17,536 bases of DNA from a virus (lineage: Duplodnaviria > Heunggongvirae > Uroviricota > Caudoviricetes). The notes under the pieces are model-generated. The model saw nothing but the letters and a program-made list of their open reading frames with translations. It had not been told where the DNA came from and ran no database searches. Numbering within the stretch: position 1 is the stretch's first letter; each line of letters starts with the position of its first letter. This document shows positions 10,535-17,240 of the stretch, piece after piece. The stretch covers positions 1 to 17,536 of the IMG/VR virus record IMGVR_UViG_2648501186_000010. The stretch is one strand, 5' to 3'. The translations under genes and the position numbers were made by a program.

Positions 10535-12556
10535 CTATAACCACCCCGGCCACAGTTCCTGCAATGGCTCGTTTTGAGTCTCTTTAAGCCGCCCGTTGCG
10601 GTAAATCAGAGCGCCCTGACCAAATCTCAAACCACTACCCCGCAAGAGAATGGCTATTTCTTCATCAGAACCATCAAAACCCCGACTGCGTAATTCCAGT
10701 TTTAACCGTCTGCGGGCTCCCCCCTCCGTACAGTTATTGACAGAACTCCAAGGGGCGGCGTTGCCGCCAGAAAAACCCGCCTCCGCTGGCGCTTCGGCCA
10801 ACTTCGCAACCTTTTGCCACTTAACCAGACGGGTGCAAACTTCTGAATCAGGAACCAAAGGAGAATAAACCCCCTGTATGCGCTGCACGTCCTCTGCATA
10901 CTCGTTGCCCTGTTCCGTAATTTCATAGGCCAGACGAACAACCAGATCACGGCGGGCAACCAGTGCACCGCCCTGCGCCTGGGTATATGCAGCCCAGTCC
11001 CCGACATCAGCAGCGGCCAGAACCGCATCCATTCTGCGATCGGTCAGCACCTGATCCCGCAACCGACGCAGCTCACGCCAGACAGTTACCGGCGCACCAC
11101 CAATCTGCTGAAACTGACGAATACGCCAGCGTGAAGCCCATGCAGAAACGGACTTAGCCATATCACGCAGGTTTTCGCCGGTTTCTTCGTCATGCTCACC
11201 ATCCAGCGCAAAACCATCAATATTTTTTGAAATGTATTTCGCGATGTAGCCCGTGGCCGAACCTTTGGCGGGATCGATAGCTTCAACATGAAAACGCGCC
11301 TTCAGCGCCTTTTCAGATTGCAGTTCTTCAGAATCGGTAATTCTGGCGTGATAGCAAAGAATATCGCGTACCGTGTCCACGTCATGCGGACGCATAAAAA
11401 GCAACATATGCCAGTGCGGTGTCCCGTCATGGTGAGGCTCAACAACCCGAAACCCAAATACATGAATACCCGCACGCGAGATCGCTGCGCGTGCTTTTGC
11501 CCATACGCCGCATAAATAGCGCTGGGTATCCTGCGGCGTACATCCATCCCATTGCGATACAAAGCCACCTTTGCTGTGCACTGCGTGGAAACGTGATGGC
11601 GCGGTGATGGTGTAAAACTCACCGGCCAGCCCTTCTTCATTGGCCATATCTTCAAACCCTCGCATTCTTACCATTAGTTCACATCGACGGATCGCCGGAT
11701 TTGCAACGCTGCGGTGCACCATGCTGTCCAGTGCAATGCGCAGCCCCTCATCATTCAGCAGATCAAACTTTTTAAAGAACTCCAGATTCCGCTTTTTCTG
11801 GTCTATCCATTCGTCCAGTGTTTTGCGGGATACATAAGCGCTGGCCGCTTTTTGTACCTGTCCCACCGCGATGGCCATATGTTCGCGCTGCATATCACGC
11901 GCACGTTTAAGACGTAGGTACCACCATTCCGGCGCCATCATGCGCAGTATCCCGGATTCCGCCTTACGCATTTCCAGTTGACCTTCATTGGCCTCATGTT
12001 CAGCCCAGTACGGCGGCTGGTTATTCAGCATCAGGCAACCCGCGCAAAGATGGCGGTATGATTCCAAGGTGCGGCGATGCAGCTCTCTGGCGTCGTCAGT
12101 GCCAGAGTCAAACTGTTCGGTGAAGTCATAAAGTGACTGGGAAATCCAACCAGATACCTGGCCAGCCAGTTTTTTAAGATCAGGACGGTCTAGTGACGGC
12201 AAGCGCTCCATCGACTTACCAAAAGGAAGATCAGCAGCGTCAGCGGCCAGCGAGTAACGCGCAGCCACTTTGCGCAGACGTGGCAATACACTCCCGCCGA
12301 TAGTCTGGCGCAGGAATGTATTGGCACGGCGACGCCCGTCACGACCAGCAAACAGCTTTTCGTAACGACGGCCAAAATACCCGGCTAACCAGTCGGGTAT
12401 CTCATGAAGGTACTGTGAGCGCCATTCGTAATCCTGTGGGTTAACCGCCCACAGGCGGCGCTCAGTGAGCGTGGCGTCTGTAGGTGTACCCGGTGCGAAC
12501 GTTTCACGCCGCCAGGTATCGACGGCGTGATGTTGGCCATTGGCGACAGGAGTCAT
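10535..12556 (-). CDS. A: Rolling-circle replication initiator (gpA family, HUH endonuclease)
   Basis: 673 aa with HUH-type motif (GTPHWHMLLF) and catalytic-Tyr motif (YIAKYISK) typical of P2/186 A proteins. Start ATG overlaps the dam stop (ATGA). Confidence 0.85.
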   Translation of the reverse strand: MTPVANGQHHAVDTWRRETFAPGTPTDATLTERRLWAVNPQDYEWRSQYLHEIPDWLAGYFGRRYEKLFAGRDGRRRANTFLRQTIGGSVLPRLRKVAARYSLAADAADLPFGKSMERLPSLDRPDLKKLAGQVSGWISQSLYDFTEQFDSGTDDARELHRRTLESYRHLCAGCLMLNNQPPYWAEHEANEGQLEMRKAESGILRMMAPEWWYLRLKRARDMQREHMAIAVGQVQKAASAYVSRKTLDEWIDQKKRNLEFFKKFDLLNDEGLRIALDSMVHRSVANPAIRRCELMVRMRGFEDMANEEGLAGEFYTITAPSRFHAVHSKGGFVSQWDGCTPQDTQRYLCGVWAKARAAISRAGIHVFGFRVVEPHHDGTPHWHMLLFMRPHDVDTVRDILCYHARITDSEELQSEKALKARFHVEAIDPAKGSATGYIAKYISKNIDGFALDGEHDEETGENLRDMAKSVSAWASRWRIRQFQQIGGAPVTVWRELRRLRDQVLTDRRMDAVLAAADVGDWAAYTQAQGGALVARRDLVVRLAYEITEQGNEYAEDVQRIQGVYSPLVPDSEVCTRLVKWQKVAKLAEAPAEAGFSGGNAAPWSSVNNCTEGGARRRLKLELRSRGFDGSDEEIAILLRGSGLRFGQGALIYRNGRLKETQNEPLQELWPGWL

Positions 12557-13413
12557 GCGCAGGCCATCGCTATAGAACCAAGCGGCGACTTCAGAATTAA
12601 CTCTGCGGCAACTTTCTGGCTTGCAGCTGCGGCACCAACACTACGTGGGGCATTAATGCGAACGGCTTCAAATCCGGCGTACAGGTAATGCACCATTTCC
12701 AGATCGGCATTAGAGGCCACAACCGGCACACCTTTTCTGGCCAGACGGCGCAACTTACGCGCCAGCCTCCCCTGATCCATGTGCGAAAAACCGCGCTCAT
12801 GGTAAGCGGTGAAATTGTCGCTTTCAGTCAGATAAGGCGGATCACAGTAAACAACGTCATTCCCGTCCCGAACCAAATCGAGCGTTTCTGAATAGTGGGC
12901 AGTAATGAACGTTGCGCGTTTCGCTTTTTCAGCAAAGGCACGGATTTCATCAGCGGGAAAATAAGGCTTTTTGTACTTACCGAACGGGACGTTGAACTGG
13001 CCTCGGCGATTATACCGGCACAGGCCATTGAAGCAGTGGCGATTCAGGTACAGGAAACGCGCAGCATTTTCAACAGATTCAGAACCGGCCTTACCACCAG
13101 AAAGATTGAAAGCATCACGCACTGCGTAATAGAAAATGGCACGGCTTTCTTCATCACCTAACGAACCGGCAGTAAACAGGATCTCCAGCTCATTCAGCAG
13201 CGCATCAGTGTGATACGCCATCGCCTTATAAAGATTAACCAGATCAGGATTCACATCTGCGATCAGATACTCGTCATAATCCGTATTCATCATGACAGCG
13301 CAGGAACCTGCGAACGGTTCAACCAGGCGTTTACCTTCTGGAAGGTGCGGACGCAGCATAGGCATAAGGCGGGCTTTGCTGCCCACCCATTTAAGCGGAG
13401 TTTTTATTGCCAT
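12553..13413 (-). CDS. dam: DNA adenine (N6) methyltransferase, Dam-like
   Basis: Motif I (VEPFAGSCAV) and motif IV DPPY; Dam-like N-terminus (WVGSKARL). ATG at 13413 chosen over the upstream in-frame start of the track ORF. Confidence 0.85.
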   Translation of the reverse strand: MAIKTPLKWVGSKARLMPMLRPHLPEGKRLVEPFAGSCAVMMNTDYDEYLIADVNPDLVNLYKAMAYHTDALLNELEILFTAGSLGDEESRAIFYYAVRDAFNLSGGKAGSESVENAARFLYLNRHCFNGLCRYNRRGQFNVPFGKYKKPYFPADEIRAFAEKAKRATFITAHYSETLDLVRDGNDVVYCDPPYLTESDNFTAYHERGFSHMDQGRLARKLRRLARKGVPVVASNADLEMVHYLYAGFEAVRINAPRSVGAAAASQKVAAELILKSPLGSIAMACA

Positions 13414-13637
13414 GCCGCACCGCCTTTGCTGCAAATCGCCGCGGCTTCTTCGCGGATCAACTCAACGATTTCCGTTGCGCTTAAACCTTCATTGGCTGCA
13501 TGGGTGGCCAGCTTATTCAGACGGGTGGAACACAAATCAGCAGCAGCGGCTTTACCTTCCTGCGTGGCTTTGGTGAGCATTGCCAGCAGGTCAGTGACTG
13601 ATTTTGTTGCGGGTAAATCCTGACGTGTCATATGCAT
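13404..13637 (-). CDS. Hypothetical small early protein (77 aa)
   Basis: ATG 13637 (or 13631) with AAGGA RBS; helical, Ala/Glu-rich; 3' end overlaps the dam start by 10 nt. No recognisable motif. Confidence 0.5.
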   Translation of the reverse strand: MHMTRQDLPATKSVTDLLAMLTKATQEGKAAAADLCSTRLNKLATHAANEGLSATEIVELIREEAAAICSKGGAAWQ

Positions 13638-13704
13638 TTTGGTTTCCTTAAGGCAAAAGAATCCCCGGCCACTTGAAACATGGCCAAAAAATTCAGGCGG
13701 TTAA

Positions 13705-14106
13705 TTAGTGAAAAGTGGGGTGTACTGTGGCAGCTGAGTAGTTCGGTACCGGAATCAGGTGCAGTTCATAGGTTGTCCGCCACCACTCCTGGATCAGTGC
13801 ATTTATCTCGCCAACTCCCAGCGCCCCGGCTGTATAGAAAATCGCACGAATCCCCGCCAGCGCTTCTATCTGGGCTTCTTTGCTTTCCGCTTCGCGATAC
13901 ACGCAGCACCAGAAAGCGGCATTGATCGCCAGCCAGTGACGCGGATTCGTCATGTGCTCGGTGTCATTGAAGAAGAACGGATGCAAAGCGATGCGGCCAT
14001 TTTTACTGGTGCTTTTCTCTGTAAACACTACAGCGTAGTTATGCGGGACACCCCACACAGCCAGTTCAGCCCCCAACGATTTACCCTCAACGGAAATAAT
14101 GGTCAT
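13705..14106 (-). CDS. Hypothetical early protein (133 aa)
   Basis: ATG at 14104..14106 overlaps the upstream gene stop (TAATG coupling). Trp/Cys-containing sequence with no family I recognise. Confidence 0.55.
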   Translation of the reverse strand: MTIISVEGKSLGAELAVWGVPHNYAVVFTEKSTSKNGRIALHPFFFNDTEHMTNPRHWLAINAAFWCCVYREAESKEAQIEALAGIRAIFYTAGALGVGEINALIQEWWRTTYELHLIPVPNYSAATVHPTFH

Positions 14107-14534
14107 TAGTGATTCCCCTGTTGCTGGAACTTATGGACGATATGAGGTGCAATCACCATCTGTACCCCACTACTGCTATAAATTGGATGTGCCTTTTTGA
14201 TCGGGCGGTTCGCGGTGCGCTTTGAAAAATCGCTGTCACGTAAACTGCCGAAACCTTCAAACGTTAACCGCGCCCGTGAAATGCCCTGGCGCAGTTGAAT
14301 CATGTCCCGATAGCCCAGGCGTTCATAAATCTCACGCCAGCAACATTTGCTTAAGTGGGCTTTAAATGCCCCGGAACCAGAAGTAACCGCAGCAGCATGA
14401 AGCACCACGCCGCGCCACTCCGGTGTTAAGTTGTCCCACCATTCAGCGGCCTCGCTGCTTTCGTTGAAGTATTTGCGGCGAATCTGTTTTAAATGCTCCA
14501 GCCCGCGCTTTTGCTGTTCCTGGCTAATCGCCAT
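14106..14534 (-). CDS. Hypothetical early protein (143 aa from ATG 14534; the ORF could instead start at GTG 14729, giving 207 aa)
   Basis: ATG 14534 preceded by GGGGG RBS (tataGGGGGcgttATG). The longer model starts at a GTG overlapping the cII stop. Occupies the fil/dhr/B position of 186/P2. Confidence 0.5.
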   Translation of the reverse strand: MAISQEQQKRGLEHLKQIRRKYFNESSEAAEWWDNLTPEWRGVVLHAAAVTSGSGAFKAHLSKCCWREIYERLGYRDMIQLRQGISRARLTFEGFGSLRDSDFSKRTANRPIKKAHPIYSSSGVQMVIAPHIVHKFQQQGNH

Positions 14535-14542
14535 AACGCCCC

Positions 14543-14716
14543 CTATAGTCCCATCAGACGACGCCACCACGGGCGGCGCGGCTGCTGGCCATTGAATTTG
14601 TACATGTGGCCAGGGTTCCAGCGCTGACCGTTTGGCAGTTCTATCCAGCCCGTTGAACCACTCGGCAACTGCATGGCTGGTGATTCTTTTTTCAGGTAAG
14701 TGACAAACGCTTTCAT
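14543..14716 (-). CDS. Candidate small ORF (57 aa) directly downstream of cII, alternative frame to the 207 aa model
   Basis: ATG at 14716 preceded by GAGGGA RBS, 10 nt after the cII stop; the stop at 14543..14545 lies 8 nt before the ATG at 14534. Translation MKAFVTYLKKESPAMQLPSGSTGWIELPNGQRWNPGHMYKFNGQQPRRPWWRRLMGL. Below the size cutoff of the supplied track. Confidence 0.3.
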   Translation of the reverse strand: MKAFVTYLKKESPAMQLPSGSTGWIELPNGQRWNPGHMYKFNGQQPRRPWWRRLMGL

Positions 14717-14725
14717 GGTGTTCCC

Positions 14726-15229
14726 TCACATCAGGCCGGTGGCGTTGGTTGTGACCAGCTCCACCGCCGCAGCCAGAACAGGCGCAGAGTGAATACGGCT
14801 TTCAACGGTATAAGCCAGCACGGATAAGCTACGGATTGCATCGCGGGCACGATCCAGAATTTGAGTACGGCGGGCGGCAGTCATATAGCCAGTTGATACG
14901 GCTTCCCCAGCAATCGCGCCCACACTGGCTGTGGCACTCAGTGCGCACAACTGCATGTTGCCTTCTGTGGCATTGTTCACCGGCACGGATGGAAGGCAGT
15001 TAATCTGACCTAACATCCCATCAAGCAAACGCGCATCTTCGGTGTAATCCGTGATAGCCAAAAGCTCATCACAGGTCAGGCGGTGCGGTTGTGCTGGGTT
15101 CAGTTTGTTGCGCAGGATCTGCGGCCTCATACCAACGGCAGCGGCCACATCTTCAAGATTGTGCTCAATTGCAAATGCTCGGCAAGCCGCATCAAAGTGC
15201 GCATGTTTAGAGGTCTGGTAATCAAACAT
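14726..15229 (-). CDS. cII: CII-like transcriptional activator (phage 186 CII family)
   Basis: N-terminus MFDYQTSKHAHFDAACRAFA closely resembles my recollection of 186 CII (MFDFQVSKHPHYDEACRAFA), with similar length (167 aa). Sits between apl and the early genes; GGGAGAGG RBS. Confidence 0.8.
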   Translation of the reverse strand: MFDYQTSKHAHFDAACRAFAIEHNLEDVAAAVGMRPQILRNKLNPAQPHRLTCDELLAITDYTEDARLLDGMLGQINCLPSVPVNNATEGNMQLCALSATASVGAIAGEAVSTGYMTAARRTQILDRARDAIRSLSVLAYTVESRIHSAPVLAAAVELVTTNATGLM

Positions 15230-15259
15230 TGTTTGCCTCTCCCGAATCCGTAGGATGGA

Positions 15260-15481
15260 TTACGCGTTAAGCGAAATGTCACATTCGCTTAAAGCCTGAA
15301 TAGTGAGCGCGGCCATGTTGACTTCGACCAAGCCTTTCTTCTGCTTACCCTTCGGCTTAATAGGTAATTTCCCGTATTCGATCAGGTTCCTGGCGGTTTC
15401 TTTGTTGGTACCAGTACGGCGGCAATACTCGTCTAAAGGCAGGTATGGCTCAGGGATGATGATTGTAATGTTCGGACGCAT
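15260..15481 (-). CDS. apl: Apl/Cox-type excisionase and switch regulator
   Basis: 73 aa from ATG 15481 (GGAG RBS). First gene of the operon divergent from cI; small basic protein with HTH-like segment (TGTNKETARNLIEYGKLPIKPKG). Confidence 0.7.
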   Translation of the reverse strand: MRPNITIIIPEPYLPLDEYCRRTGTNKETARNLIEYGKLPIKPKGKQKKGLVEVNMAALTIQALSECDISLNA

Positions 15482-15502
15482 GAGGCAAACTCCACAAGTT
15501 AA

Positions 15503-15520
15503 CCTGTACGGCAATACAGG
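15503..15520. promoter_or_regulatory. Inverted repeat CCTGTA-N6-TACAGG in the switch region (operator candidate; also fits CTGT-N8-ACAG)
   Basis: Perfect 6 bp arms. Sits between TTAACC (15500..15505) and TTATAT (15523..15528), which have -35/-10-like spacing on the plus strand toward cI. Confidence 0.3.
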
Positions 15521-15566
15521 GTTATATAAGGCAACATTCAAAATATGGAGCCAGATTAATTCGCGT

Positions 15567-15596
15567 TTCGAGAAGTGTCAATTTTAATTTCTCGAA
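15567..15596. promoter_or_regulatory. Perfect 8 bp inverted repeat TTCGAGAA-N14-TTCTCGAA overlapping a minus-strand TTGACA hexamer (candidate pR operator)
   Basis: Arms at 15567..15574 and 15589..15596. The spacer contains tgtcaa (15576..15581), i.e. TTGACA on the minus strand, a plausible -35 for the apl/cII operon. Lies 21 bp upstream of the cI start. Confidence 0.35.
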
Positions 15597-15616
15597 TCGA
15601 GACTTATGGATTCGCT

Positions 15617-16198
15617 ATGAGCACATTTAAAATCGACCTAAACGTAGATAGCACACCGATTCTTGACAGGGTGATCGAGGCTTACGGATTTACGCAGAAG
15701 TTACAGCTCGCGGAACATCTGGACATGGCAGCCAGTTCTCTTTCTTCACGCTACAAGCGTGGAGTTTTCCCGGCAGACATTGTCGTGAAATGTGTAGCCG
15801 AAACAGGCGCTAATCTGGAGTGGCTGGCGACAGGACAGGGACGTAAATTTAATGATGATGAATTAGACATACTCAAAATACCGCGCAGCAAGATTGTTGA
15901 TGGCCAACTCTATGACGCTGGCACACTTATGCTTGATAAAGTCATCTTCCTGCCTGGTAAGCCCTTACCGCAACAACCGATTTGTGTTCTGGATGGCCTT
16001 GTTCAGTACATTGTTGACCAGTCTTATTCTGAAGTTTATGACGATGATTGGTTGGTTGAAGTTGAAGGAAAAACAAGCGTCCGCACTCTTACACGGATTC
16101 CGGTACGAAAAGTCAGAGTTAGCGGTGTTGGTATGGCATTTGATTGCGGAATTGACGACATAAAAATCATAGGCCGCGTTGTTCTGACGATAAAATAA
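15617..16198 (+). CDS. cI: CI immunity repressor (phage 186 CI family)
   Basis: LDRVIEAYGFTQKLQLAEHLDMAASSLSSRYKRGVFPADIVVKCVAETGANLEWLATGQG matches my recollection of the 186 CI N-terminal HTH domain; C-terminal FDCGIDDIKIIGRVV also matches. ATG 15617 gives 193 aa (186 CI is 192). Stop is 1 nt before the int ATG. Confidence 0.85.
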   Translation: MSTFKIDLNVDSTPILDRVIEAYGFTQKLQLAEHLDMAASSLSSRYKRGVFPADIVVKCVAETGANLEWLATGQGRKFNDDELDILKIPRSKIVDGQLYDAGTLMLDKVIFLPGKPLPQQPICVLDGLVQYIVDQSYSEVYDDDWLVEVEGKTSVRTLTRIPVRKVRVSGVGMAFDCGIDDIKIIGRVVLTIK

Positions 16199-16199
16199 A

Positions 16200-17240
16200 A
16201 TGAGCGTTCGTAAACTTCCTACAGGCGAATGGATCGCCGACTTCTACACCGTCAACCGCAGTAATGGCAAGAACGGGAAGCGTATACGTAAAAAATTTGC
16301 CACGAAAGGGGAAGCCCTGGCATTCGAAAACCATACGCTTCAGAAAGTAGACGCAGCTCCGTGGCTGGGTGAAGGGAAGGACAAGCGAACTTTAATAGAT
16401 CTGATAACAATGTGGTATGAACGCCACGGCGTAGCTTTGAGCAATGGCGAAAAGCGTAAAAATGCTATGACCTGGGCGGCGGAATGCATGGGATTCCCGC
16501 TGGCCACAGAATTTAATGCCCAGTTGTTCACAGCCTACCGCGCTAAAAGGCTGGATGGGCATTATGCCCGTACCAACAGAGTATCTAAGGTTTCCCCGAA
16601 AACTATGAACCTTGAACATGCTTACTTCCTGGCTATGTTCAACGAGCTGAAACGGATTGGTGAATGGTCAGCACCCAACCCACTAGAAAACGTCAGACAG
16701 TATCGTACTGATGAAACCGAAATGGCTTTCCTCACTACCGAAGAAATTGATCGGCTTTTACTGGAATGCAAACGAAGTAAAGTTAAGTACCTAGAATTAG
16801 TTGTCAAAATCTGCCTTGCTACCGGCGCAAGGTGGAATGAGGCGGCAACGCTGAAAAGCTCCCAGATCGCCGGGGGTAAAGTCACGTTCGTCAAAACCAA
16901 AGGGAAGCGCAACAGAACAATTCCCCTTGATGATGAACTTCTGTCCGAATTGCCTGAAACAAAAGGCGCTCTGTTCCCCAAGCCCTGCTACAACGCTTTC
17001 CGCTCTGCTCTGGAACGTGCAGGCATTGAACTCCCCTCCGGCCAGCTTACCCATGTACTGCGCCATACATTTGCCAGCCACTTTATGATGAACGGCGGAA
17101 ACATTCTGGTTCTGCAAAAAATTCTCGGCCACGCTGACATCACTATGACAATGCGTTATGCCCATTTCGCCCCAAGCCACCTTGAAGATGCCGTGCGACT
17201 TAACCCCTTAAAATGTCGCAAAAATGTCGCGACAGCTTAG
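16200..17240 (+). CDS. int: Tyrosine recombinase / phage integrase (P2/186 Int family)
   Basis: 346 aa with C-terminal catalytic motifs (LRHTFASHF...ILGHADITMTMRYAHF). Immediately downstream of cI, as in 186. Confidence 0.9.
   Translation: MSVRKLPTGEWIADFYTVNRSNGKNGKRIRKKFATKGEALAFENHTLQKVDAAPWLGEGKDKRTLIDLITMWYERHGVALSNGEKRKNAMTWAAECMGFPLATEFNAQLFTAYRAKRLDGHYARTNRVSKVSPKTMNLEHAYFLAMFNELKRIGEWSAPNPLENVRQYRTDETEMAFLTTEEIDRLLLECKRSKVKYLELVVKICLATGARWNEAATLKSSQIAGGKVTFVKTKGKRNRTIPLDDELLSELPETKGALFPKPCYNAFRSALERAGIELPSGQLTHVLRHTFASHFMMNGGNILVLQKILGHADITMTMRYAHFAPSHLEDAVRLNPLKCRKNVATA

Follow-up and report, generated by a model that had tools for sequence, protein, structure and literature searches.

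The assembly of the replisome in P2-like phages is only partly understood, both with regard to the roles of gpB and with regard to the depression of host replication by Dhr. In P2, the B protein reportedly interacts with DnaB (Odegrip et al. 2000); gpB binds this host helicase and is needed in lagging-strand synthesis. A difference in DnaC dependence has been reported between P2 and 186, and gpB may confer DnaC independence in P2. Directly ahead of the tR1-type terminator, the early operon has a slot that is filled with unrelated genes in different genera: B in P2, dhr in 186 and, in some Yersinia phages, a short gene of the gpB-like type. According to the record of 186, tR1 and the other terminators of the region are subject to anti-termination in early lytic development. 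The factor responsible is not named in the records or literature found, and literature on 186 tR1 or antitermination was searched for and none was found. A further note in the 186 record, at orf84, states that coupling is needed for the translation of A.

Layout of the early lytic operon

The window, i.e. the whole stretch of 17,536 nucleotides that was analyzed, is identified by sequence comparison as an E. coli prophage of the ESSI-2/Quadragintavirus type of P2/186-like phages. Near-identical copies (99.9% over a query of 1.5 kb) are carried by E. coli lysogens such as strain 1919D3 (NZ_CP046006). An earlier note on this DNA had described two uncharacterised proteins of 133 aa and 77 aa in an early lytic operon. 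The location in such an operon of a P2/186-like prophage, the coordinates of both ORFs (Table 1) and the Trp- and Cys-containing peptides quoted from the 133-aa translation were all verified, and every source name for the two proteins is either "hypothetical" or "DUF2732". The gene order is apl - cII - fil - orf142 - orf133 - (tR1-like terminator) - DUF2732 - dam - A. The upstream neighbour of orf133 is thus not the switch with cII, as had been assumed, but orf142, which is preceded by fil. Both genes had been merged into one mechanical ORF of 207 aa. Annotations of fil exist in ESSI2_ev015 and in E. coli genomes of RefSeq, the gene is conserved between 186 and the window with 39% identity (tblastn), and the orthologue in L182 carries PF10893.

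The tight packing proposed for the two ORFs was found at their outer ends. The TAA stop codon of orf142 (14108-14106) and the ATG of orf133 (14106-14104) have one base in common in a TAATG overlap. On the other side, the DUF2732 ORF ends at 13404 and overlaps dam, whose start codon (MAIKTPLKW...) lies at 13413, by 10 nt; dam in turn overlaps the start of A by 4 nt and encodes 286 aa, the same length as the annotated homologue. Packing does not extend to the junction of the two ORFs themselves, which are separated by a conserved 67-nt spacer with a hairpin and a T-tract.

Table 1. Features of the early operon segment, in window coordinates
Feature	Position	Strand	Description and basis
orf133	13705..14106	(-)	133 aa, phrog_3935; last gene ahead of the tR1-like terminator
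77-aa DUF2732 gene	13404..13637	(-)	first gene past the terminator; positional orthologue of P2 Orf80 and 186 orf80
Putative tR1-like intrinsic terminator or attenuator	13652..13690	(-)	scan match, conservation of stem and tail
Ribosome-binding region ahead of DUF2732, TTAAGGAAACCAAA followed by ATG	13638..13651	(-)	read from the sequence; near-invariant across loci
Conserved multi-frame stop box TAATTAACC, ending orf133	13699..13707	(-)	comparison across phages
TAATG stop/start overlap, orf142 to orf133	14104..14108	(-)	read from the sequence
orf142	14106..14534	(-)	basic 142-aa protein, phrog_33841; probable remote relative of P2 gpB/Phage_RepB
fil	14543..14716	(-)	DUF2724, 186 Fil family, cell-division inhibitor homologue; annotation and sequence similarity
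dam	12553..13413	(-)	D12-class N6-adenine methyltransferase, PF02086 5.5e-66

A scan of positions 12400-15700 detected no promoter-like site where 3.1 were expected, and an Rfam search of the same region gave no match. As no promoter-like site was found inside the early block, both genes should be silent in the lysogen. This speaks against a role in superinfection exclusion or another lysogenic-conversion trait, which had been suggested from a general expectation for accessory genes of P2-like phages. Both genes belong to the CI-repressed early lytic operon, and the P2 conversion genes old, tin and fun reside at other loci, with tin beyond A. Membrane or secretion features were not detected; GRAVY is close to 0, and AF2 yields a soluble helical fold. 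A conversion trait is considered most improbable.

The two ORFs are real coding genes, are subject to purifying selection and form part of the fixed backbone of the lineage. The dN/dS values against 53-75 unique orthologues ranged from 0.04 to 0.13 (0.04-0.12 for orf133 and 0.06-0.13 for the 77-aa protein). The order fil-orf142-orf133-spacer-DUF2732 proved to be fixed in 92 of 93 related loci, and the 1-nt overlap of orf142 and orf133 was kept in 87 of the 93. The same layout recurs at 40-49% identity in Pantoea, in Yersinia YenM_324 and in L182. The region had been described as variable. This applies to the slot before the terminator, which differs across genera, but not to the two genes within the lineage, where variability is instead found downstream. 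There, DUF2732 and A are 27 to 1869 nt apart across related loci, and the genes encountered encode an exonuclease, a DUF3850 protein or a PAPS-reductase-like protein in relatives and Dam in the window.

This conservation is relevant for the proposal, made in the earlier note, that one or both proteins are early counter-defence factors (anti-restriction or anti-immune) that would shield the phage DNA. Both genes are indeed early, small and uncharacterised, and genes of the DNA-modification or protection type are located downstream here and in relatives. However, fixed backbone genes are unlike the variable cargo expected in an arms race, the strong purifying selection is accompanied by no visible diversification, and DUF2732 is kept across genera with different hosts. 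PADLOC and NCBIfam searches returned only noise for the 77-aa protein (12.8 bits in PADLOC) and nothing for orf133. The near-neutral pI values (6.13 for orf133 and 6.05 for the 77-aa protein) argue against a DNA mimic. Counter-defence is an unlikely function for these proteins.

The terminator junction and the DUF2732 gene

The spacer between orf133 and the DUF2732 gene measures 66-67 nt in 84 of the 93 loci. Its hairpin was found by the terminator scan and is also the centroid fold, whereas the fold energy of the whole 67-nt spacer is unremarkable (z -0.54). The putative terminator stem GGCCAT/GTGGCC pairs positions ~13685-13680 with 13672-13667 and is followed by the tail GGGGATTCTTTTGCC, with a T-tract that is short and interrupted. 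The hairpin is kept in 52 unique variants. Stem cells are paired in 91% of cases, whereas sliding the stem lowers this share to 23-47%; the substitutions allow G-U pairing on the (-) strand. The tail matches those of the annotated 186 tR1 (GGGCATTCTTTTGCC) and of a putative P2 terminator (GGGCTTCTTTTTGCC). A hairpin with the tail GGG[GC][AT]TTCTTTTGCC is common to the window, to 186 tR1 and to the putative rho-independent terminator after P2 B, while the stem sequence is genus-specific (GGCCAY/RTGGCC here, GGCG/CGCC in 186 and CGCAC/GTGCG in P2). The TAATTAAC stop box before the terminator and the ribosome-binding site of DUF2732 after it are likewise shared with 186 and P2. This box also ends unrelated upstream genes, namely 186 dhr, P2 B and genes of two Yersinia phages, and it is present as the variant TAATAAATCC in L182. 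The terminator places the two ORFs in different segments of the operon.

The absence of a recognised motif in both proteins, as noted earlier, holds for orf133, which has no Pfam family. The 77-aa protein is a member of Pfam DUF2732 (PF10809), scoring 44.5 bits where 25 are required (E 1.5e-11), with residues 10-67 aligned to positions 8-67 of the 75-position profile. PF10809 is present in all 120 homologues listed for the protein, which also matches phrog_128 (2.3e-21). Sequence similarity and position identify it as orthologous to the DUF2732 proteins P2 Orf80 and 186 orf80 (CP80). The 186 protein has the same length of 77 aa, shares 33% identity over 49 aa and is annotated in GenBank as "not essential". 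The DUF2732 gene also has the same place in 186 and P2: it comes first past the early-operon terminator, overlaps its downstream neighbour and lies upstream of A. It thereby always leads the terminator-distal segment, which is the replication-proximal one. The gene that follows DUF2732 differs: dam in the window, orf81 (DksA-like) in 186, an orf81 annotated as a replication initiation protein in P2, and A itself in some Yersinia phages. Few genes of the region are kept as widely as DUF2732, which is found in P2, 186, Yersinia and Pantoea phages and in the present phage. A search for literature mentions of DUF2732 gave nothing relevant. The AF2 model (pLDDT 79) predicts a helical hairpin of helix 10-50 and helix 54-71.

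The position of orf133 and DUF2732 on either side of a conserved terminator raises the possibility that one of them is an antiterminator or attenuator protein, which would control read-through of the tR1-like element and time the replication segment. The terminator and DUF2732 form a conserved pair in P2, 186 and the present phage, and tR1 of 186 is recorded as anti-terminated. Yet, P2 and 186 have the same terminator without orf133, and 186 orf80 is non-essential even though the essential gene A lies downstream of tR1. An RNA-binding or RNAP-binding fold was not recognised in orf133 or DUF2732, and with such a short and interrupted T-tract simple partial read-through may suffice. An antitermination role is therefore judged highly unlikely for either protein.

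The 133-aa protein and its gpB-like neighbour

Homology to replication accessory proteins, which the earlier note had named as evidence against its reading, was found only weakly and only for orf142, and neither for orf133 nor for the 77-aa protein. The orf142 product (pI 9.95) is probably a divergent gpB/RepB-type protein and a remote homologue of P2 gpB, as judged by profile comparison. Direct BLASTP of orf142 against P2 B was not significant, and the link depends on one bridging sequence. This sequence, gp07 of Yersinia phage YenM_324, is annotated as GpB and shares 30% identity with orf142 (1e-9; 4.8e-16 with the HMM). Both gp07 (~1e-5) and P2 B match phrog_14551 and phrog_5349. In hhalign, orf142 and gpB aligned over 68 collinear columns with an E-value of 0.0011 and a probability of 20%, which is below conventional significance. 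Weak matches to phrog_602 were obtained for 9 of 28 members of the orf142 family, and orf142 and gpB-like proteins share a collinear motif that roughly reads (L/F)..R...(C/L)(F/L)HA..(L/V)..........E......L...I..L. All 80 IMG/VR loci returned for P2 B were 99-100% identical to it, so that the gpB alignment was not widened by them. Literature on YenM_324 was searched for and none was found. In position, orf142 (followed by orf133) and P2 B occupy the same slot before the terminator, P2 B being without an orf133-like partner.

The 133-aa protein itself gives a full-length match to phrog_3935 (E 8.3e-52, residues 1-124 aligned to profile positions 1-133 of 133), as does gp10 of Vibrio phage PV94 (1.8e-59). 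No annotation, Pfam entry, solved structure or literature was found for this PHROG. Homologues of orf133 amounted to 93 clusters at 90% identity and to 34 at 50% among 1.84 billion representative proteins. A Pfam scan of all 33 members of the orf133 family with E-values up to 10 did not reveal a consistent weak family, and orf133 itself gave no match in Pfam, NCBIfam or PADLOC. Structure prediction and profile searches, which had been recommended as checks, resulted in a helical protein without an informative structural match. The AF2 model (mean pLDDT 81) is folded and mostly helical from residue 1 to about 112, with a tail from residue 115 that is of low confidence. It had no Foldseek match in BFVD, and a PDB sequence search with the orf133 and DUF2732 family profiles yielded nothing below E 0.4. 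Only W66, W108 and W109 are invariant across distant homologues, and R87 and H116 are nearly so. This pattern suggests a protein without a conserved catalytic constellation. The C-terminal tail is conserved (LHxxPAPNxSA) and presumably flexible.

Several candidate relationships of orf133 were rejected. It is neither a relative of gpB nor a C-terminal half that became separated from P2 B, given a BLASTP E-value of 24 and an hhalign probability of 0.2%; the HMM of the orf133 family did not report P2 B, with the best of 2000 shuffles at 6.6 bits. It is not a homologue of Dhr either (hhalign probability 0.3%; phrog_3935 versus phrog_6069). A 1286-aa match, P0113, was recognised as a repeat artefact. 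Fusion (Rosetta-stone) proteins of orf142 and orf133 were absent from the homologue matches.

The orf133 gene is always the terminal gene of the terminator-proximal segment and is translationally coupled to orf142. In Vibrio-type phages, an orf133 relative with ~25% identity lies between a RepB/gpB-like gene and A, with one or two other genes intervening between RepB and the orf133 relative. Such a relative is absent from P2, 186 and several Yersinia phages. As all of these replicate, orf133 can be an accessory factor at most.

That this site is typical for host-takeover genes had been argued in the earlier note, and the equivalent 186 stretch does hold the host-interference genes fil and dhr. 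Orf133 could accordingly be an independent takeover factor like 186 Fil or Dhr, which would hit division, transcription or metabolism and be dispensable for phage replication. Its map position is that of dhr in 186: it lies downstream of fil, no other gene separates it from tR1, and its expression starts at pR. Small size, a non-enzymatic nature and restriction to one lineage are typical of such proteins and apply to orf133 as well, and the lack of an internal promoter-like site in the scan points to expression from the early lytic promoter only. However, the 66-aa Dhr and the 133-aa orf133 have no sequence similarity. The coupling to orf142, seen in 87 of 93 loci, and the co-distribution with the orf142 family suggest a shared task instead, and the orf133 relative persists beside RepB-type genes in distant Vibrio phages. 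An independent takeover function is possible, albeit doubtful.

Proposed roles and meaning for the family

The preferred explanation, to which a probability of roughly 40% is assigned, is that orf133 is a non-enzymatic partner of the gpB-like protein on the replication machinery and that DUF2732 is a helical-hairpin accessory protein heading the DUF2732-dam-A chain. Orf133 would be made in step with orf142 and act on the replication machinery by binding other proteins. It could aid the gpB-like protein in the capture of DnaB for the phage. Alternatively, it could deprive the host replisome of DnaB, in the manner of dhr at the same map position of 186. The DUF2732 protein would be a dispensable and probably oligomeric helical hairpin. 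Its strongly initiated translation after the terminator may start a ribosome relay through the overlapping DUF2732-dam-A genes, and the protein itself probably serves A-dependent replication and not host takeover. As 186 orf80 is annotated as non-essential, any role of DUF2732 in replication must be subtle.

A bolder version, to which only a slim chance is given, is that orf142 and orf133 form an undescribed two-protein helicase-capture module that loads or sequesters DnaB without DnaC and shuts down host replication, or else that orf133 is a tR1 read-through factor. Such a module would consist of a DnaB binder of the RepB/gpB type and a helical adaptor, whose conserved C-terminal tail might dock on a component of the host replisome. 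Both genes are ordinary phage "dark matter" and not a new kind of system, and the findings are unsurprising to a specialist.

Annotation of the region would be improved by naming the 77-aa gene as orthologous to P2 Orf80 and 186 orf80, and by dividing the mechanical 207-aa ORF into fil and a gene of the gpB-like type. The junction of stop box, terminator and DUF2732 is a module boundary and accounts for which parts of the early region are mosaic in Peduoviridae and which are not. Under the preferred explanation, orf133, whose translation is always linked to that of a gpB-like gene within one branch of these phages, is a candidate for a missing replication accessory factor of the P2-like replisome.

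Two genes in the early operon of the prophage

The 1.5 kb around the two small genes is 94-96% identical to Escherichia phages ESSI2_ev015, ev040 and ev129 (Peduoviridae, Quadragintavirus) and 99.7-99.9% identical to prophages of eight complete E. coli genomes; this query was matched in 31 of 5426 genomes, every match being chromosomal. Uncharacterised ORFs of 133 and 77 amino acids had been proposed in the earlier note, and both were found where it placed them, with the quoted peptides present in the translation. The TAATG at 14108-14104, in which the TAA of the upstream gene orf142 and the ATG of orf133 have one base in common, was verified, as was the 10-nt overlap of the 77-aa ORF with the dam ATG at 13413. 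The description of the genes as tightly packed holds for this upstream coupling and for the dam overlap, but not between the two ORFs, which are 67 nt apart. A mechanically called 207-aa ORF (14106-14729, minus strand) proved to be two genes merged, orf142 and, in a different frame, fil. Nei-Gojobori comparisons with 53-75 unique orthologous sequences, with synonymous divergence up to saturation, yielded dN/dS values of 0.04-0.12 for orf133, 0.06-0.13 for the 77-aa gene and mostly 0.05-0.16 for orf142 (0.32 in one comparison). Both orf133 and the 77-aa ORF are real genes. Sigma-70 promoter-like sites were absent from both strands of positions 12400-15700 (3.3 kb, 3.1 sites expected from shuffles), consistent with transcription from the switch as one long unit. 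A role in lysogenic conversion is unlikely, because no promoter-like site lies inside the gene block.

Genes of the window, identified by Pfam and PHROG scans, and positions of the junction upstream of DUF2732 in the window and in related loci
Feature	Record	Positions	Strand
int	window	16200-17240	not minus
186-type CI repressor (cI)	window	15575-16198	not minus
Cox/Apl-like protein	window	within 15260-15541	-
CII (Phage_CP76)	window	14726-15229	-
fil (Fil family)	window	14543-14716	-
orf142 (142 aa)	window	14106-14534	-
orf133	window	13705-14106	-
77-aa ORF (DUF2732)	window	13404-13637	-
D12-class Dam methylase (dam)	window	12553-13413	-
Replication endonuclease A	window	10535-12556	-
Junction	window	13638-13707	-
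Junction	L002	2860-2945	
Junction	L015 (P2)	2452-2530	
Junction	L016	3900-3995	
Junction	L018	2675-2755	

The DUF2732 gene and the terminator junction

The 77-aa protein, in which no motif had been recognised, matches Pfam DUF2732 (44.5 bits against a cut-off of 25) and phrog_128 (2.3e-21). The GenBank records of 186 (orf80, also 77 aa, 33% identical to the window protein over 49 residues) and P2 (Orf80) both contain an orthologous gene in the same placement, as the first early-operon gene after terminator tR1 in 186 and after a "putative rho-independent terminator" behind gene B in P2. The 77-aa ORF is a member of this known, widespread family and not variable cargo. For 186 orf80 the record states "unknown function; not essential".

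The 67-nt spacer between the two ORFs reads TTAACCGCCTGAATTTTTT-GGCCAT-gtttcaa-GTGGCC-GGGGATTCTTTTGCC-TTAAGGAAACCAAA-ATG on the sense strand; it is terminator-like by consensus scan and its centroid fold is a hairpin. Its length is 66-67 nt in 84 of 93 related loci, with 52 sequence variants. Stem cells in a 25-sequence alignment were paired in 91% of cases, against 23-47% when the partner column was slid, and the stem substitutions (GC to GU, CG to UG and AU to GU, with UG, CG or UA as the sixth pair) are tolerable for an RNA on this strand. The total fold energy of the spacer was unremarkable (z -0.54), and Rfam contained no match for it. The 3' tail is matched in the annotated 186 tR1 (GGGCATTCTTTTGCC) and in the P2 terminator (GGGCTTCTTTTTGCC); each genus has a different stem. 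A multi-frame stop box, TAATTAAC, ends unrelated upstream genes in the window, 186, P2 and two Yersinia phages, and takes a variant form in locus L182. We read the succession of stop box, putative tR1-type terminator and DUF2732 ribosome-binding site as a conserved module junction. The junction thus puts the two ORFs in separate segments, with orf133 last in the terminator-proximal block and DUF2732 first in the distal block leading to A. The stop box, a hairpin, a GGG[GC][AT]TTCTTTTGCC tail and the DUF2732 ribosome-binding site are common to P2, 186, the Yersinia phages and this prophage despite the unrelated upstream genes; the tail flanking the T-run is strictly conserved, and the junction looks like a mosaic module boundary. 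In the 186 record, tR1 is among several regional terminators that are anti-terminated in early lytic development; a rival proposal, for orf133 or DUF2732, is regulation of tR1 read-through.

Translation of DUF2732 probably starts a translational relay toward A, since its strong, conserved ribosome-binding site directly follows the terminator and DUF2732 overlaps dam, which in turn overlaps A. According to the 186 record, translation of A requires translation to the end of orf84, and a terminator within A is active if A is untranslated. The amino-acid sequence of DUF2732 is under purifying selection and the product therefore matters too, probably as a small oligomeric accessory.

Gene order around orf133 in related phages

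Gene order was compared across 93 loci, each encoding an orf133 relative (12 species-representative genomes, 80 IMG/VR contigs and ESSI2_ev015). The order fil-orf142-orf133-DUF2732 is fixed in 92 of them, and the one-base overlap between the orf142 stop and the orf133 start is kept in 87. The two genes had been assigned to the variable region between cII and A; with this order constant, the variable region lies downstream of them, from DUF2732 to A, a distance ranging from 27 to 1869 nt among the related loci. Close relatives have a 3'-5' exonuclease gene and a DUF3850 (ASCH-like) gene inserted between DUF2732 and dam. Only dam separates DUF2732 from A in the window, and dam is missing from eight loci (among L001, L003-L014 and L100-L179). 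The same layout was found at 40-49% identity in Pantoea dispersa pESL4.2, Yersinia phage vB_YenM_324 and a metagenomic contig. In the Vibrio-type phages PV94 and L181, where identity falls to about 25%, the orf133 relative is still preceded by cII and a RepB-type gene and followed by A; one or two further small genes lie in between.

In the pESL4.2 record (NZ_CP109855.1, 30.8 kb, circular) the genes int, cI, cII, fil, the orf133 relative, DUF2732, dam and A follow a P2-like order; the entry was deposited as a non-mobilizable plasmid but most likely represents the circularised genome of a P2-like phage. Defence-type domains, namely nSTAND3 with a weak Mrr_cat match and SRA_ScoMcrA with a weak HNH match, occur in genes adjoining cI in L181 (positions 1-2552; GCA_000695255.1 contig JMIB01000045.1), a distant P2-like prophage.

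orf142 as a probable gpB-like neighbour and the possible role of orf133

Searches of Pfam, NCBIfam and PADLOC gave no match for orf133, while phrog_3935 matched over its full length (8.3e-52). A search of 5.8 billion proteins returned 93 clusters, none of them named and every one from Enterobacterales; with a profile, only 34 proteins were found among 1.84 billion representatives, only 24 of them at E up to 1e-10. Matches of this profile in six stretches (E 2e-7) of P0113, a highly repetitive Cys/Ser/Leu-rich protein of 1286 aa, are a low-complexity or repeat artefact and identify no relative. By tblastn, orf133 was detected in 14 of 50,697 phage records, comprising ESSI-2-type phages, YenM_324 and, weakly, Vibrio phages; P2 and 186 were absent from these matches. 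The AlphaFold2 model (33 sequences, mean pLDDT 81, pTM 0.75) predicts a small N-terminal alpha/beta part and long helices at 55-72, 76-96 and 99-112, with a low-confidence tail from residue 115 whose sequence is conserved within Enterobacterales (ELHxxPAPNxSA...H). Invariance among distant family members is limited to W66, W108 and W109, with R87 and H116 close to invariant, and these conserved residues do not resemble an active site. Near-neutral in pI (6.1), orf133 is not a hydrophobic protein; it most likely works by binding and not as an enzyme. Comparisons with P2 B and with 186 Dhr showed no similarity.

For orf142, a basic protein, several comparisons point to gpB. YenM_324 gp07, annotated "replication protein GpB", is 30% identical to it (1e-9), matches the orf142 family HMM at 4.8e-16 and matches phrog_5349 and phrog_14551, both at about 1e-5; P2 B matches the same two at 1.7e-5 and 1.2e-11. 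L181 encodes a 95-aa protein with a precomputed Pfam assignment to Phage_RepB; over 49 residues it shares 43% identity with P2 B. Alignment of the orf142 family with a five-member gpB alignment (hhalign) gave E 0.0011, probability 20% and 68 collinear columns, and phrog_602, strongly matched by P2 B, is weakly matched by 9 of 28 family members. From these similarities orf142 is a probable remote gpB/RepB relative (about 65-70%). A RepB-like domain may be duplicated within P2 B (L015 1959-2459): two of its segments, 44-80 (E 1e-9) and 106-158 (E 0.003), are both matched by residues 45-94 of a gpB-like Yersinia protein of 103 aa.

We infer that production of orf133 is tied to that of the gpB-like protein and that its target would be the replication machinery. 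It could help to capture DnaB for the phage or, like dhr, which occupies this map position in 186, could reduce replication of the host. Rival proposals are an independent host-takeover factor and a counter-defence protein.

The 77-aa gene was already known as a DUF and orf133 as a PHROG, one more P2-like accessory gene. The new results are the division of the 207-aa ORF into two genes, the probable gpB relative next to orf133, the conserved stop-box/terminator/DUF2732 junction and the downstream placement of the variable region. For the specialist these results are no surprise; they provide annotation and a mild lead on the assembly of the P2-type replisome.
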